Positions 3,057 to 61,275 of a stretch of 64,000 bases of DNA are shown here, one piece after another. How positions within the stretch are numbered: position 1 is the first letter of the stretch; each line of letters opens with the position of its first letter. Below the pieces are notes generated by a model that was given only the letters and a program-made list of their open reading frames with translations, searched no databases and was not told where the DNA came from. Origin of the DNA: an uncultured Candidatus Saccharibacteria bacterium (GTDB taxonomy: Bacteria; Patescibacteriota; Minisyncoccia; Portnoybacterales; UBA2143); the NCBI GenBank assembly GCA_964596615.1, contig CAZQUN010000003.1:2550-66549 (forward strand), written 5' to 3'. Made by a program: the position numbers and the translations under genes.

Positions 3057-4183
3057 TTTGTTAAAACCCCTAATGTCTCTCTGGCGCATTTTTGCCAGGA
3101 AAACTTTTTGGCCCGTTCTAGGCCTTTTTTTGTTAAATGATTCCTTAAATCGTTATCAGTCAAAACTGTCTCCATGGCCCAGGCCAGTTCATCAATATTT
3201 AATGGATTAATCATCAGGGCACCGTCCCCAACCACCTCCGGCAAAGACGAATTATTCGAAACAATTGTTGGCAGTCCACAGGCCATGGCTTCTAAAGGCG
3301 GAAAGCCAAATCCTTCAAAAAAACTCGGGTAGATAAATAATTCGGCCAGACCATACAAAACGGGCTTATCCTTTTCATCAACAAAACCAGTAAAAGCAAT
3401 ATCATCCCTGTATTTTGACTGATTGACTGCCTTGAAAACATCTTTGTAAAGCCATCCTTTTGTTCCGGCAATAACCAATCTGATTAATTGTTTTTTTCTG
3501 ACTGATTCAAAAGCTTTAATTAAACCGATTAGATTCTTTCTCGGTTCAATTGTGCCAAAGTAGAGAATGAATTTATCAGGCAGATTATACTTCCCCCTAA
3601 TTTCTTCTTCTTTTTCCCTATTCTCCCCTGGTTTAAATTGTTCTCCAACCCCGGAATAAATTACCTTAATTTTTTCTTCTTTAATCTGATAAAGATTAAT
3701 TAAATCGGTTTTGGTTGAGTTTGAGACGGCAATAATCTTATCAGCTCCCCGAGCTTCTTTTCTGGTTTTCATTAAAAACCTTTGCCATAATCTTTTTCGC
3801 CAGGAAAAAAATTCTGGATAATGAATGAAAGATAAATCATGAAAAGTCATTATCTTTCTGCATTTCAAAGAAACCGGCGAAACAAAGAAATGGGGATTGA
3901 AATATGCTTCAATTCCTTTAAGAAGTTTATCAATTCTGGGTCGGTTGAAATATGTGGCCGAAGTAAAAAAAAGACGATTAGGAATCTTAAAATCCTTTAA
4001 CTCAACATTATCAAGAGAAAGCCAGGGATAATCCAAATTAACTTTTCGCAGAGCATTGTAGAAAAGATGGTAATTGGCTTTAGATTCCAGAGGAAGAAGA
4101 TAAGATAAAAGATTAATTACATATTCCTCTACTCCGGTCCTGGCACCGCGGGCTAAAACCCTGATATCAATACCGATGTTCAT
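3053..4183 (-). CDS. Glycosyltransferase family 1 (GT4-type)
   Basis: EGFGFPPLEAMACGLPTIVS motif. Start probably at the internal MNIGIDIRVLARG. Confidence 0.85.
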   Translation of the reverse strand: MNIGIDIRVLARGARTGVEEYVINLLSYLLPLESKANYHLFYNALRKVNLDYPWLSLDNVELKDFKIPNRLFFTSATYFNRPRIDKLLKGIEAYFNPHFFVSPVSLKCRKIMTFHDLSFIHYPEFFSWRKRLWQRFLMKTRKEARGADKIIAVSNSTKTDLINLYQIKEEKIKVIYSGVGEQFKPGENREKEEEIRGKYNLPDKFILYFGTIEPRKNLIGLIKAFESVRKKQLIRLVIAGTKGWLYKDVFKAVNQSKYRDDIAFTGFVDEKDKPVLYGLAELFIYPSFFEGFGFPPLEAMACGLPTIVSNNSSLPEVVGDGALMINPLNIDELAWAMETVLTDNDLRNHLTKKGLERAKKFSWQKCARETLGVLTK

Positions 4184-6710: not shown

Positions 6711-7052
6711 TGTGTCCAAGCAAGCCGTAAGCCGGGTTCTGTCTTGGATAGTCATCTATCTGGGATCAATATTACTATTGACCTCAAGCGAGCTACTTTT
6801 TTCCGCCAAAGGCGGATTTGCTCTTGCACCAGGCAGGGTTTACCACGTCTCAGCATCTCTGCCGGACGAGAGGAGTTAATCCTCACTTTTCACCTTTCCT
6901 CCCTTTAGGAGAGTACCCCTAAAGCGAAGTAGTATTGTCTCTGTGGCACTTTCCCTATTCTCACGAACGGTGGGCGTTACCCACTGCCACTTAGTGGTGC
7001 CCGGACTTTCCTCCCCCAATGGAGGGCGACTATCTAACTTACTTGGACAACT
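6711..7052 (-). ncRNA. rnpB: RNase P RNA (bacterial type A)
   Basis: Minus strand contains the universal P4 strands GGAGGAAAGTCCGGGC and ACAGAACCCGGCTTA. P1 helix: 5' TTGTCCAAGTAAG pairs with 3' CTTGCTTGGACA. No ORF over this stretch. Confidence 0.85.
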
Positions 7053-23420: not shown

Positions 23421-27279
<3,859 letters not shown>

Positions 27280-27282
27280 ATA

Positions 27283-28266
27283 TTAAAACTGCTTTAAGAA
27301 TCTTAAATCATTTGAATAGAATAACCGGATATCATTAACTTTGTATTTAATCATGGCTAATCTTTCCAAACCGGCGCCAAAGGCAAATCCCTGCCATTTT
27401 TTAGACGGATAACCAACTGATTTAAAAACATTAGGATGAACCATGCCAGCTCCCATTAATTCAAGCCATTTACCTCCTTTTGGTCGGGCATCAACTTCAA
27501 AGCCCGGTTCGACAAATGGGAAATAGCTTGGCCTTAATCTAATTTCTGTTTCCTTTCCAAAAAACCTGGTTAAAAACCCTTCAATTACTCCTTTGAAATT
27601 AGCCGCTGAAATATTTTCTCCGACCATTAATCCTTCAACTTGGTAAAACTGAGCTTCATGGGTGGCATCGGTGGCTTCATGCCGGAAACATCTTCCCGGA
27701 ACAATCATTCTTAAAGGCGGACTATTCTTTTCCATATGCCTGGCCTGCATTGGAGAAGTATGGGTTCTTAAAAGCAAATCAACACCCTTTAACCAATAAG
27801 TATCCCATAAATCTCTGGCCGGATGGTCTTTAGGAATATTCAAGGCGTCAAAATTGTAATATTCGGTTTCAACTTCCGGGCCGTAAATAACGGAAAAGCC
27901 CATTGATTGAAAAATTTCTTCAATCTCTCTTTGGACTAAAGTAATTGGATGAAGATGTCCCTGGGGCGGCAACTTGCCCGGTGCTGTGACATCAATCCAA
28001 CCCTTTTTGCCTTTGCCAAAATCAACTTTTTTAATTGAAAACTTTCCTCTTTTTTCTTTAAAAACTTCTTCTAAATCTTTTTTAATCTGATTGGCTAATT
28101 GGCCTTTTTCCTTTCTTTCTTTTTCATCCAAATCCTTCAAAGAACGCAAAATCTTGGTCAATTCCCCTTTTCGACCAAGATATTGGGTATAGAGAGAGTC
28201 AAGATTTTTTAAATCCTTGACTTCTTTGACTTCATCTAAAATTTTATCTCTTAATTCTTCTAGCAT
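27283..28266 (-). CDS. pheS: Phenylalanine--tRNA ligase alpha subunit
   Basis: Class II aaRS motifs (FRHEATDATHEAQFYQVEG, GAGLERLAM). Confidence 0.9.
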   Translation of the reverse strand: MLEELRDKILDEVKEVKDLKNLDSLYTQYLGRKGELTKILRSLKDLDEKERKEKGQLANQIKKDLEEVFKEKRGKFSIKKVDFGKGKKGWIDVTAPGKLPPQGHLHPITLVQREIEEIFQSMGFSVIYGPEVETEYYNFDALNIPKDHPARDLWDTYWLKGVDLLLRTHTSPMQARHMEKNSPPLRMIVPGRCFRHEATDATHEAQFYQVEGLMVGENISAANFKGVIEGFLTRFFGKETEIRLRPSYFPFVEPGFEVDARPKGGKWLELMGAGMVHPNVFKSVGYPSKKWQGFAFGAGLERLAMIKYKVNDIRLFYSNDLRFLKQF

Positions 28267-28274
28267 AAATTAAG

Positions 28275-28667
28275 TTATCTTTTCATCAGCCACCATTCGG
28301 CTAATCCCACTAAACCAACTAACAAAACCAAGTGCCACCAGGAAAGTATTCTTTGGCTTTGTAAAATTAGGACTGAAATTAAAATGACGCTGAAAAGCAA
28401 TCCCTGGCGAAATGAGATTTCCAAATCTCGGACAACCTGGCTTTTAGGCAAAGGGATTCTTCTTTTCTTCCTGGTAATTTGTCTGACTAAAAATCCGATT
28501 AAAGTGAATATACCGGTAAGGCTGATAAAGAGACAGGAATAGAGTAGGACAAAAACCAAGGTTCCGGAAGCATTGGGATTGAAGTAGATTAAAATAGCTG
28601 CTAAGCAGGCGCTAGCTAAAAAAATGACCAAAACCAACCCTGCTAGATATCCTGATATATTCATATC
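28275..28667 (-). CDS. Hypothetical small membrane protein (3-4 TM)
   Basis: Probably starts at the internal MNISGYLAGLVLVIFL; hydrophobic throughout. Confidence 0.45.
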   Translation of the reverse strand, partial: DMNISGYLAGLVLVIFLASACLAAILIYFNPNASGTLVFVLLYSCLFISLTGIFTLIGFLVRQITRKKRRIPLPKSQVVRDLEISFRQGLLFSVILISVLILQSQRILSWWHLVLLVGLVGLAEWWLMKR

Positions 28668-28753
28668 TATTACTTTAATTTTACTATATTTCAAAGACCA
28701 AGACAACCCCCAAAAGGACTTGAAATATCTTAAAATGTGGAGTATAATAACAT

Positions 28754-28824
28754 TGCGCGGTAGAGAAGTAGTATCTCGTGAGGCCCATAACCTCAAGACC
28801 CGGGTGCAACTCCCGGCCGCGCAA
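28754..28824 (+). tRNA. tRNA-like element with CAU anticodon (non-canonical D- and T-loops; possible degenerate or initiator-like tRNA-Met)
   Basis: Folds as acceptor TGCGCGG/CCGCGCA (7 bp), U8, D-stem GAGA/TCTC, anticodon stem TGAGG/CCTCA with loop CCCATAA, T-stem CCGGG/CCCGG. Has A11:U24 but lacks G18G19. T-loop is TGCAACT. No CCA. Confidence 0.35.
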
Positions 28825-28831
28825 CTCGGAT

Positions 28832-29608
28832 ATGTTATTAAGAAGATGGACCAAAGAAGAAGAGAAAAAACTTAAACACCTCTACTTAAGAACAAAAACA
28901 CCCGTAGAGGAGATTTGTCGAATTATAGACAGATCGCCACCAGCAATTCAGAATAGATTAAAAATATTAGGATTCAAGAAACGTCGGTTTCCTATCATAG
29001 CCAGACATCCAGACAAAGTTACTCCTGCCTTAGCAAGGATTCATGCTCATATATGTGGAGATGGCTGTATGTATACCCTTAGAGAGAAAGACTCTTATGG
29101 CCCATGGGCTAAATATCGAAAAAGGGCCTATAGAACTAAGTATAATACATGTTATACTAATACCAACCCAAAGCTCCTTAAAGAATTCCGGCAAGACATA
29201 CAGGAAGTTTTTGGGATTAAAGGCAAAAAACTAAGAGATTTTGATATAAGGTTAAATTCTAAAAGAATTTGGCGATTACTTAAAGAGATGGGCGCAGGAA
29301 ATTCTCATGAATGGTCTATCCCGAAATCTATCACCCAAGGATCGTCTAATGTGAAAAAGAGTTGGATTAGGGCGTTTTTTGATGACGAGGCGTATTTCAA
29401 TGACCGAGGCAGAATCAGAGTAAAGTGCGTGAATAAAAAAGGGCTCCAGCAAATTACTAAGATATTAAATGAGTTTATTCCATGTAATCTTTTGCCGAAA
29501 AAAGGTTCGTATTGGGGAAATACTTTTTGTATAAGTATAAATAAAAAGGATGCTCCTAAATATTTCTCTAAAATAGGTTCACTTCGTTATAGTATAATGA
29601 AAAAATAA
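28832..29608 (+). CDS. Free-standing LAGLIDADG homing endonuclease (double-motif, with N-terminal HTH)
   Basis: Two LAGLIDADG-type motifs about 108 aa apart (ARIHAHICGDGCMY and IRAFFDDEAYF). N-terminal HTH-like WTKEEEKKLKHLYLRTKTPVEEICRII. The listed ORF start (28778) overlaps the tRNA-like element; MLLRRW (28832) is more likely. Confidence 0.7.
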   Translation: MLLRRWTKEEEKKLKHLYLRTKTPVEEICRIIDRSPPAIQNRLKILGFKKRRFPIIARHPDKVTPALARIHAHICGDGCMYTLREKDSYGPWAKYRKRAYRTKYNTCYTNTNPKLLKEFRQDIQEVFGIKGKKLRDFDIRLNSKRIWRLLKEMGAGNSHEWSIPKSITQGSSNVKKSWIRAFFDDEAYFNDRGRIRVKCVNKKGLQQITKILNEFIPCNLLPKKGSYWGNTFCISINKKDAPKYFSKIGSLRYSIMKK

Positions 29609-29612
29609 TCAT

Positions 29613-29686
29613 GGCGGCGTAGCTCAACTGGTTAGAGCGGGAGACTCATAAGCTCCAGGTTACAGGTTCAAGTCCTGTCGCCGCTA
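29613..29686 (+). tRNA. tRNA-Met or tRNA-Ile2 (anticodon CAU)
   Basis: Cloverleaf GGCGGCG-TA-GCTC-AACTGGTTA-GAGC... with anticodon loop CTCATAA and T-arm ACAGG-TTCAAGT-CCTGT. Resembles both E. coli elongator Met and ileX. No CCA. Confidence 0.85.
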
Positions 29687-29701
29687 CTAAAATTAAATAA
29701 T

Positions 29702-29775
29702 GGGGGCGTAGCTTAGTGGTTTAAAGCGTCTGCCTGTCACGCAGAAGATCGAGGGTTCGAATCCCTTCGTCCCCG
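29702..29775 (+). tRNA. tRNA-Asp (anticodon GUC)
   Basis: GGGGGCG acceptor, anticodon stem TCTGC/GCAGA with loop CTGTCAC, T-arm GAGGG-TTCGAAT-CCCTT, discriminator G. Confidence 0.9.
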
Positions 29776-29787
29776 CAGTTAGAAAAT

Positions 29788-29808
29788 AGCCCGTTTGGGC
29801 TGTTTTTT
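29788..29808 (+). terminator. Rho-independent terminator after the tRNA pair
   Basis: AGCCC gttt GGGCT followed by GTTTTTT. Confidence 0.6.
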
Positions 29809-29844
29809 ATTGTCTTTATTATTCTATGACTATACAATTGAATT

Positions 29845-60346: not shown

Positions 60347-60775
60347 CTATTTCAGATTTTCTAATCTTTTATTAACAAACTTTTCTATAAAATCAACCAT
60401 TTCCTTTTTTGCTTCTGGCGGACTCTCTGCAACCCAACGAGCAAAATTATATAGCTCGGTTGTATTAGATTTAAGCCATTTATTATTTGAATGCAAAAAA
60501 ACAAACAAGGTTGTTATGGCAATCCTTTTGTTTCCATTTTTGAACGGATGGTTTTTTATTAGCAGGTAAAATAAAATAGCAGCTTTCCTCTCTAATCCTT
60601 TGTACAGATATTTCTTATTAAATTTCTGGAAAGGCGCTGCGATACAACTCTCCAAGACATTAGGATATCTGGTCTCGAAATCAGGGATTGGTTCGTCCCA
60701 ACTCATTGTCTGAACAGCAAGCTCGTGAGCAATATGCTTAATTCTCTCAATTGTAATATTTTTTATCCTACTCAT
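60347..60775 (-). CDS. Fic/Doc family protein, Doc-type motif (HxFxNGNKR)
   Basis: IKNHPFKNGNKRIAITTLFVFL matches the Doc kinase motif better than the Fic HPFx[DE]GNGR motif. Overlaps the upstream HTH gene. Confidence 0.7.
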   Translation of the reverse strand: MSRIKNITIERIKHIAHELAVQTMSWDEPIPDFETRYPNVLESCIAAPFQKFNKKYLYKGLERKAAILFYLLIKNHPFKNGNKRIAITTLFVFLHSNNKWLKSNTTELYNFARWVAESPPEAKKEMVDFIEKFVNKRLENLK

Positions 60776-61040
60776 TTCCAAGCATCTTAAGGGTTTCGCC
60801 ATATTCTTTGATTACCTTAGCAACACCCTTTTTAATTTCATTCTTATCTTTGTCGCTTAGCTCTTTGGAAATAATATTATCTATATCCTTTTTATAGATA
60901 ATATAGTTTCTTCCCATCTTTTCGGCTTTTATCTGACCCTTTTTAATCTTATTAAAAACGGCGACGCGACTGATGCCTAAAATATCAGCTAGTTCTTTGA
61001 CTGTGTAATAGTTTTTGTTTTTCATATTTTTGTTAATCAT
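60768..61040 (-). CDS. Helix-turn-helix DNA-binding protein (excisionase/MerR-like HTH), putative antitoxin/regulator
   Basis: YYTVKELADILGISRVAVFNKIKKGQIKAEKMGRNYIIYKKDI. Start uncertain (61025, 61040 or 61058). Confidence 0.6.
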   Translation of the reverse strand: MINKNMKNKNYYTVKELADILGISRVAVFNKIKKGQIKAEKMGRNYIIYKKDIDNIISKELSDKDKNEIKKGVAKVIKEYGETLKMLGNE

Positions 61041-61048
61041 ATATCTAA

Positions 61049-61086
61049 AAGTTAACATATGTTAACTTTGCTGTCAATAGTTAACA
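61049..61086. promoter_or_regulatory. Operator-like perfect 20-bp palindrome (AAGTTAACATATGTTAACTT) plus a third GTTAAC half-site and a TTGACA -35 element
   Basis: Perfect inverted repeat at 61049-61068. TAGTTAAC at 61078-61085. Minus-strand TTGACA at 61072-61077. Lies immediately upstream of the HTH gene. Confidence 0.5.
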
Positions 61087-61124: not shown

Positions 61125-61196
61125 GGTGCCCGGAGGGAGTTGAACCCTCGTCGCTAGTTCCACAAACTAGAGCTCTACCGTTGAGCTACGAGCACC
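61125..61196 (-). tRNA. tRNA-His (anticodon GUG) with encoded G-1
   Basis: Minus strand G-GTGCTCG-TA-GCTC-AACGGTA-GAGC..., anticodon loop TTGTGGA, T-arm GAGGG-TTCAACT-CCCTC, discriminator C pairing G-1. Confidence 0.85.
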
Positions 61197-61199
61197 ATC

Positions 61200-61275
61200 T
61201 GGCACGCCTGGAGGGAGTCGAACCCCCGACCTAAGGTTTAGAAAACCTCCGCTCTATCCGCTGAGCTACAGGCGC
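61200..61275 (-). tRNA. tRNA-Arg (anticodon UCU), CCA encoded
   Basis: Minus strand GCGCCTG-TA-GCTC-AGCGGATA-GAGC, anticodon stem GAGGT/ACCTT with loop TTTCTAA, T-arm GGGGG-TTCGACT-CCCTC, then CCA. Confidence 0.85.

Follow-up and report, generated by a model that had tools for sequence, protein, structure and literature searches.

What is known of free-standing homing endonucleases, and of trans or collaborative homing, comes so far nearly all from phages (PMC3984707, PMC2790892, PMC2330249). In phage T4, SegB is encoded by a free-standing gene between tRNA genes, a conserved T-psi-C motif of tRNA is part of its site, and the tRNA genes on its flanks spread together with it (PMC2330249). MobE, likewise of T4, is a promoterless free-standing endonuclease that mobilises the neighbouring nrdB intron by co-conversion (PMC2790892). 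Intronless homing and trans or collaborative homing have been reviewed, including F-CphI and the psbA intron of cyanophage S-PM2, where the cleavage site is also the intron insertion site (PMC3984707). Here, a 64-kb stretch of DNA (contig CAZQUN010000003.1, hereafter the window) was analysed, whose host is placed by related sequences among Patescibacteria, a group known as well by the name CPR (candidate phyla radiation). The subject is an open reading frame (ORF) of 258 aa between two tRNA genes with CAU anticodons, and its candidacy as a homing endonuclease gene (HE; HE+ and HE- denote loci with and without a member of its family). Window positions are on the + strand unless stated, and L-numbers denote the loci of relatives.

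The window HE is like SegB in being a free-standing endonuclease gene between tRNA genes; SegB, however, is a phage-borne GIY-YIG enzyme of demonstrated activity, whereas the window HE is a cellular LAGLIDADG gene known from sequence alone. With MobE it shares a presumed reliance on upstream transcription and, in its relatives, an adjacent group I intron that lacks a functional endonuclease. MobE nicks DNA as an HNH enzyme and belongs to an operon of phage protein genes, whereas the introns of the window family are in tRNA, and their co-mobility is read from co-occurrence statistics only, in contrast to the trans homing of MobE. As a genetic element, the window HE would by analogy work like the free-standing endonucleases of T-even phages, from which it differs in catalytic family, in its cellular, multi-phylum distribution and in its strict linkage to the initiator tRNA. 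We consider it probable, with some room for doubt, that the ORF is a free-standing HE inserted in the spacer between tRNA-fMet (the initiator) and tRNA-Met, using the tRNA operon as a niche.

The ORF (28832..29608, stop codon included, ATG at 28832) was assigned from homologues, Pfam, structure prediction, Foldseek and substitution rates. It stands between an initiator tRNA (CAU) of Patescibacteria type (28754..28824) and an elongator-type tRNA(CAU) with C11:G24, Met or Ile2 (29613..29686), which is followed by the third gene of the operon, tRNA-Asp(GUC) (29702..29775). The left part of the spacer, read directly from the sequence, is CTCGGAT (28825..28831), a gap of 7 nt where the initial annotation had counted 8; this leader is too short for a separate ORF promoter. 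The right part is TCAT (29609..29612), matching the CAT/TAT found before tRNA-Met in the empty sites L091 and L112. Intron and rRNA models matched nothing around the ORF in the window, as expected from its first description as free-standing, and no further HE copies were found in the 64 kb.

Empty alleles of the operon were used to define the insert. In HE-less Patescibacteria, tRNA-Met(CAU) followed tRNA-fMet within 400 nt in 62 of 91 loci, and tRNA-Asp came next in 35 of those 62. The HE-less relative L112 is 85.7% identical in nucleotides to window 24001-28711 (~4.7 kb of upstream flank), and its tRNA-fMet and tRNA-Met are 10 nt apart with no ORF (...CCCGCAA-CAAGATATAT-GGCGGCG...). Two further empty spacers read CAAGATTTTTTAT in L098 and CTCGCAT in L091, the latter to be compared with CTCGGAT[ORF]TCAT in the window, where the full junctions are ...CGCGCAA-CTCGGAT[ATG...TAA]TCAT-GGCGGCG. 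More distant syntenic relatives with ~70% identical flanks (L126, L127 and L142) have the ORF in the same place. Because the fMet-Met spacer is empty in L112, the bare ORF is an insertion in a conserved fMet-Met-Asp operon; as shown by the aligned junctions, the insert is essentially the ORF itself (~780 nt) in mid-spacer. Insertion at a tRNA locus had been proposed from the window, and the orthologous loci, empty in L112, L098 and L091, bear it out.

For the 258-aa protein, 82 homologues were found (closest E=1e-128), and the ratio of nonsynonymous to synonymous substitution rates (dN/dS) against the three nearest relatives was 0.09-0.12, indicating purifying selection. Given the homologues and this selection, the ORF is not a chance reading frame, and the dN/dS values show that the protein is functional. 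Pfam LAGLIDADG_3 was matched by 31 of the 39 aligned family members (best E=1.9e-10), and the window protein itself gave weak sequence-level matches to intein endonuclease domains. An AlphaFold (AF2) model built from the family alignment (predicted local distance difference test, pLDDT, 91.4) shows a single chain with a three-helix bundle at its N-terminus and then two LAGLIDADG helix/sheet units. Searched with Foldseek, the model placed I-DmoI first among free enzymes (E=3e-10, target template-modelling (TM) score 0.74), with PI-PfuI and the Tli VMA intein endonuclease as other top matches and the domesticated transcription factor WhiA more distant (E=7e-6). I-DmoI, PI-PfuI and the Tli VMA enzyme have the same monomeric two-domain LAGLIDADG fold, with an acid ending each helix. 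They are encoded in an archaeal rRNA intron or in inteins, whereas the window HE is free-standing in a bacterial tRNA operon, carries an extra N-terminal Myb-like domain and is only ~18% identical to them.

The N-terminal domain, assigned from Pfam and the model as a three-helix Myb/SANT-like DNA-binding domain, spans residues ~6-47 (28847..28972), with predicted helices at residues 8-20, 25-32 and 36-45; Myb_DNA-bind_6 was detected in 9 of the 39 members (best E=2e-6), and the short-form relatives P0069-P0082 are without it. Both LAGLIDADG motifs were placed by alignment and model. At motif 1 (ARIHAHICGDG, residues 68-78, 29033..29065) the model has a helix (65-76) and then a strand (78-86), and the motif residues A68, R69, H73, D77 and G78 are invariant in the 39 sequences. 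Motif 2 (WIRAFFDDEA, residues 178-187, 29363..29392; family form W(I/L)RAFFDDEA) goes with helix 172-186 and the following strand 187-191, with W178, F182, F183, D184 and E186 invariant in the same alignment. The predicted catalytic acids, D77 and E186, are unchanged in homologues down to 32% identity to the window protein. The modelled fold is that of a monomeric LAGLIDADG enzyme of the double-motif type, with a Myb-like helix-turn-helix (HTH) at the N-terminus, and retention of both acids argues that the protein may still be a nuclease. The two motifs and the HTH, at first recognised from the sequence alone, are supported by Pfam, the alignment, the AF2 model and Foldseek.

The family was surveyed in 80 metagenomic and 6 assembly loci. 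In about 45 of the 47 dereplicated full-length loci with upstream sequence, 3-139 nt separate the end of an initiator tRNA from the start of the ORF. The hosts include Patescibacteria, Omnitrophota and other lineages whose canonical initiators are GC-rich, and the neighbourhoods are unrelated (gatCA, enolase/ftsH, pheST). Only one of 119 species-representative genomes bearing this tRNA has the HE (L060, the same locus as L001). A conserved housekeeping gene without LAGLIDADG motifs, which had been named as the finding that would overturn the endonuclease assignment, is not what was seen: the HE is sporadic and keeps both motifs. Site specificity together with patchy occurrence would be the expected signature of a site-specific selfish gene, and the locus points to a cellular multi-phylum HE family tied to the universally conserved initiator tRNA. 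No family relatives were found in viral contigs, and there is therefore no evidence for a phage vector; neither the family nor a LAGLIDADG gene beside tRNA-fMet was described in the literature searched.

Several details of the relatives concern the ends of the gene. In many Patescibacteria relatives the HE reading frame enters the downstream tRNA-Met gene and ends at the TAG of GUAGCUCAG or at the TAA of the anticodon loop (CAUAA in the tRNA); with the stop codon inside tRNA-Met, RNase P cleavage would strip the mRNA of its stop. Such frames were seen in L002 (4771-4780), L001 (~4786), L129, L131, L132, L134, L139, L173, L141, L149 and L152. A duplication of the tRNA 3' end after the ORF was clear in L154 (z=5.2), weak in L155, L157 and L177, and at z=1.0 in the window. 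In L154, the HE stop codon is followed at once by a diverged repeat of the final 17 nt of tRNA-fMet (AAATCTGCCCCCCGCAA). Copies of this type hint that, in some Omnitrophota-type loci, the point of entry of the cassette may have been in or at the tRNA gene's 3' part. An integrase-style attachment-site (att) duplication was rejected as a general feature, being clear in L154 only and absent in the window.

Short-form relatives without the Myb-like domain are also found just 3' of tRNA genes (L202/L203, L205, L191 and L200), and several of them adjoin tRNA-Met(CAU). L202 is an archaeal contig, with an archaeal signal recognition particle (SRP) RNA at 1936-2245 and an intron-containing tRNA at 2256-2361. 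An identical protein was present in a second sample (L207, SRR24302412 contig, 1086 nt), on a contig ending 9 nt past the stop codon. For many members of the family the contig is only 1-3 kb long, which would fit presence/absence polymorphism breaking the assembly.

In L001, L002 and L005, a group I intron interrupts the tRNA immediately upstream of the ORF. Rfam RF00028 scored 84 bits in L001 and 76 bits in L005, and nine more HE+ loci and one HE- locus were above its gathering threshold. Default ARAGORN missed the split tRNA in all three of L001, L002 and L005, and the Rfam scan at E<0.1 missed L002, whose intron was recovered by reading the sequence and by the intron mode of ARAGORN; intron-split Patescibacteria initiator tRNAs may likewise escape default tRNA finders. 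Under the splice-site rules used for group I introns (exons ending in U, introns in G), just two insertion sites are allowed: CU|CAUAA (33/34), in the U33-type tRNAs of L002, L005, L067, L106 and L119, and CCCAU|AA (36/37), in the C33-type tRNAs of L001, L126-L128, L044 and L125. The introns measure ~190-300 nt (L001, 3757-3945; L002, ~3698-3952), are ORF-less in most loci and lie inside the tRNA, so placed that the ORF comes after the 3' exon; the window tRNA has none. That CPR tRNAs can bear group I introns, and that CPR 16S genes carry LAGLIDADG introns, has been reported (PMC8172020).

After dereplication, an intron was present in 23 of 45 HE+ loci and in 7 of 110 HE- Patescibacteria loci (Fisher p=1.5e-9), a baseline that covers Patescibacteria with one D-arm pattern only. 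Among nearest HE neighbours (76-84% identity), one has the intron and the other lacks it in at least 6 cases, the window (no intron) and L126 (intron) being one of them. No degraded copies of this HE family were found in intron-containing HE-less loci. Occupied, empty, intron-plus and intron-minus alleles all exist naturally for study of the endonuclease-intron association.

I-Ssp6803I, the endonuclease of the cyanobacterial tRNA-fMet intron, has its gene within that intron and is not known as a LAGLIDADG enzyme, whereas the ORF of the window family is outside the tRNA and the introns are ORF-less. In both systems tRNA-fMet is the host gene, its anticodon loop holds a group I intron and an endonuclease goes with it (Bonocora and Shub 2001, as cited in PMC3984707). 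For F-CphI the comparison turns on geometry: many occupied loci of the window family are intron-less with an unaltered tRNA, which argues against a cleavage site that is also the intron site.

The proposed sequence of events is as follows. The enzyme would cut alleles without the HE where the 3' end of tRNA-fMet, the spacer and the 5' end of tRNA-Met meet, or close by; an occupied allele would then be the template for recombinational repair that copies the ORF in, and the insertion would split the recognition site. Transcription of the ORF would start at the tRNA promoter, and the flanking tRNAs would be freed by RNase P and 3' processing, leaving the insertion harmless or neutral to the host, with tRNA processing in the role that splicing has for intron-borne endonucleases. 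Repair tracts would co-convert the adjacent tRNA, by which ORF-less anticodon-loop introns would travel with the family (trans homing); the HE probably carries neighbouring introns along in this way. If true, this would be trans-homing of ORF-less tRNA introns in cells, which has been shown to date only in phages, and an enzyme that may recognise a tRNA-gene junction, with an accessory Myb-like domain, would represent a possible new specificity.

Horizontal spread of the HE is suggested by comparison of the window with L126. Between these two, the HE has dS 0.98 and dN 0.118 and the adjacent pheS has dS 2.06 and dN 0.198, values of dS near saturation; the comparison with L127 was saturated, so that a younger HE is supported for the window-L126 pair only. 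The nearer genome L112 (pheS dS 0.75 to the window) has no HE. A rare acceptor pair, C5:G68, is common only to the window and L126 among ~200 loci. The flank mosaic is ambiguous and has few sites: tRNA-Met is nearer to L112, tRNA-Asp is nearer to L126, and the window tRNA-fMet is about equally identical to both.

The near-saturated dS values, the ambiguous mosaic and the restricted intron baseline weigh against the proposal, as do the following points. The window protein scored 21.3 bits against Pfam LAGLIDADG_3, below the 22.5-bit cut-off. The fMet-Met spacer of empty sites varies in length from 1 to 13 nt, which is awkward for a rigid LAGLIDADG site of 20-22 bp; such spacers might be accommodated through the basic, flexible linker that joins the Myb-like domain, by analogy with bipartite enzymes. 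Omnitrophota-type loci have no downstream tRNA and have a terminator hairpin between the tRNA and the ORF, and with this different geometry the target must differ between clades. Finally, we infer the cutting, the transfer and the target site from comparative anatomy alone.

Strict collaborative homing is the first alternative to insertion in the spacer. Under it, the enzyme would cut the anticodon-loop intron site of an intron-less tRNA, the intron would confer immunity, and the pair would spread together. This pathway is documented in phages (PMC3984707), and it would account for the enrichment of introns beside the HE given above and for the introns in all three of the closest HE relatives of the window (L126-L128). 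The tRNA is uninterrupted, however, in 22 dereplicated HE+ loci, the window included, and both insertion sites (33/34 and 36/37) are associated with the HE. The intact tRNA-fMet of the HE+ locus L130 is 100% identical to that of the HE-less loci L075 and L123, and a site wholly within the tRNA would be self-cleaved in L130; the target therefore cannot lie wholly within the tRNA. This evidence, although indirect, speaks against the intron site as target and against intron immunity. From the intron-less HE+ loci and the L130 identity, strict collaborative homing is disfavoured, and we think it unlikely; hitch-hiking of introns in repair tracts, over the ~40-50 bp between the intron and the ORF insertion point, is favoured.

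It is similarly improbable, in our judgement, that this LAGLIDADG protein has been domesticated and is no longer a mobile nuclease, serving instead as a DNA-binding regulator of the tRNA operon in the manner of WhiA or as a maturase that aids folding of the tRNA-fMet group I intron. WhiA, which also joins a LAGLIDADG scaffold to an HTH, was among the structural matches at the E-value above; LAGLIDADG maturases are an established class, the HE co-occurs with introns, and purifying selection on it would suit a cellular function. In WhiA, however, the catalytic acids are lost, the HTH is C-terminal and the gene is conserved housekeeping, whereas in the window protein the acids are kept, the HTH is N-terminal and the occurrence is sporadic. 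Both acids are invariant in 39 of 39 aligned members. Presence in one of 119 representative genomes and absence from the closest relative, L112, mark the HE as dispensable, and half of the loci, the window included, have no intron to mature.

The upstream CAU tRNA-like element was scored with the Rfam tRNA covariance model (RF00005), giving 57.4 bits (E=3.6e-11; gathering score 29), and ARAGORN called tRNA-Met(cat) at 28754-28825; the element, whose reality had been left to such scoring by the initial annotation, is a genuine tRNA. It has a CAU anticodon, a weak U1:A72 pair, A11:U24, C33 and a T-loop UGCAACU, with D-stem pairing of G10 A11 G12 A13 with U22 C23 U24 C25. The anticodon, A11:U24 and T-loop agree with the first description; of the reported absence of G18G19, the loss of G18 stands, but G19 is kept in the D-loop AGUAGUA, as is C56. 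One genome per species was scanned with a pattern of the tRNA 5' half, which yielded 119 Patescibacteria loci (the invariance of A11:U24 across them is partly set by the search pattern), and loop statistics were taken from the 103 uninterrupted tRNA copies among them. D-loop AGUAGUA was paired with T-loop UGCAA (60) or CGCAC (2) and AGUGGUA with UUCGA/UUCAA (41), with no discordant copy in 103. In standard numbering, this two-class covariation is an exchange of the G18-psi55 elbow contact for A18-G55, with G19-C56 retained. All stem pairs are maintained by compensatory changes in 90 distinct sequences, with up to 4 pair types per T-stem position.

Of the 90 distinct relatives, 78 have no pair at position 1:72 (C-A in 53, A-A in 18; U-A was found in 11). 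In the anticodon stem, G30:C40 and G31:C39 are present, and the window, like 89 of the 90 relatives, has A:U at 29:41; the lack of the three G:C pairs (29:41, 30:40, 31:39) typical of initiators lowers the identification without excluding it, and initiators with two G:C anticodon-stem pairs occur in some bacteria. C33 replaces the near-universal U33 in 43 of the 62 tRNAs of the A18/G55 class, including the window (anticodon loop CCCAUAA, with nt 32-33 of the tRNA at 28785-28786), and in only 1 of the 41 of the canonical class. The other two tRNAs of the window have ordinary loops, and the A18/G55 variant is therefore specific to the initiator. We take the upstream tRNA to be an ordinary initiator tRNA of Patescibacteria, as judged by these comparisons; among the options first offered, that of an unusual initiator proved correct, with a lineage-wide loop swap, compensated stems and a mostly unpaired 1:72, and the same loop and stem covariation disposes of a decaying duplicate and of a tRNA-like attachment or recognition element.

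That the upstream element is a decaying copy of the downstream tRNA-Met, or an attachment or recognition element derived from the insertion, is hardly credible: its D- and T-loops are non-canonical and it scores 57 bits against 66-74 for its neighbours, but the same tRNA type and loops are found, with a single copy at each locus, in 119 Patescibacteria genomes, of which nearly all are HE-less, the perfect A18/G55 covariation and fully compensated stems contradict decay, and its initiator marks, A11:U24 and the weak 1:72, are missing from the downstream tRNA(CAU). No description of the A18/G55 initiator variant was found in the literature searched. For annotation, it is a warning that Patescibacteria initiator tRNAs can seem degenerate (A18/G55, C33).

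Other ORFs were found in the same operon. Among 99 representative loci with enough sequence, 24 had an ORF of a nuclease family in the same orientation no more than 1.5 kb downstream, mostly inside the tRNA cluster, a count that covers loci of the fMet-Met-Asp operon; spacer ORF families are present in about a quarter of the representative genomes. A family with an HTH and a single LAGLIDADG-like motif ('DLFIAGxxLYWGEG') occupies the fMet-Met spacer in L033, L069, L122 and L125, and a second LAGLIDADG_3 family the Met-Asp spacer in L023, L041, L067, L094, L096 and L123. Small GIY-YIG proteins were encoded in cluster spacers, those checked being fMet-Met, Met-Asp or fMet-Asp, and 23S-rRNA-IVS (intervening sequence) proteins were encoded in L007 and L070. 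Spacer ORFs were also listed for L045, L097, L117, L119, L121, L061 and L082. A spacer ORF was present in 4 of 6 evaluable intron-containing loci (5 if the L044 remnant is counted) vs. 20 of 93 intron-less loci (p=0.03). In L044, the ~130-nt spacer from the intron-bearing tRNA-fMet to the next tRNA encodes QKRGESIRDIAKKLEKG..., similar to the N-terminus of the HTH family in L033 and L125. This remnant looks like a decayed endonuclease gene, as would be expected late in a homing cycle. More tentatively, and as something we find conceivable but somewhat short of probable, operon spacers may be the equivalents of introns, a niche shared by at least 4 unrelated ORF families (the Myb-LAGLIDADG family and the HTH/single-motif, second LAGLIDADG_3 and GIY-YIG families) that would use the tRNA promoter for expression and be neutralised by tRNA processing. 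On this view the Myb-LAGLIDADG family has kept to the initiator tRNA while taking this way of life from phylum to phylum, and it may drive trans-homing of ORF-less group I introns of the initiator tRNA in cellular organisms.

The remaining features of the window were annotated as follows. A putative sigma-70-type promoter (TTGAAA-17-TATAAT, 28720..28748, 11/12 matches in a consensus scan) ends its -10 box 5 nt before the start of the initiator tRNA, and the identical promoter sequence is found in L112. The downstream tRNA(CAU) and tRNA-Asp scored 66.1 and 73.9 bits with Rfam and are followed by a putative intrinsic-terminator-like hairpin and T-run (29780..29809, consensus scan), all as first described. 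In that scan, one promoter and one terminator bracket the entire unit; from their sequences, they would function as such for the tRNA operon. The upstream neighbours are pheS and pheT on the minus strand, and the downstream neighbour is a gene for an IPPT-family (miaA-type) tRNA isopentenyltransferase. A bacterial class A RNase P RNA was located at 6713-7045 on the minus strand (221.8 bits). Elsewhere in the window, two small overlapping ORFs (96 aa and 151 aa; 60347-61058, minus strand) stand beside tRNA-Arg and tRNA-His (61125-61275); the first begins with an HTH-like segment, and from the translations alone the pair appears toxin-antitoxin- or mobile-element-like.

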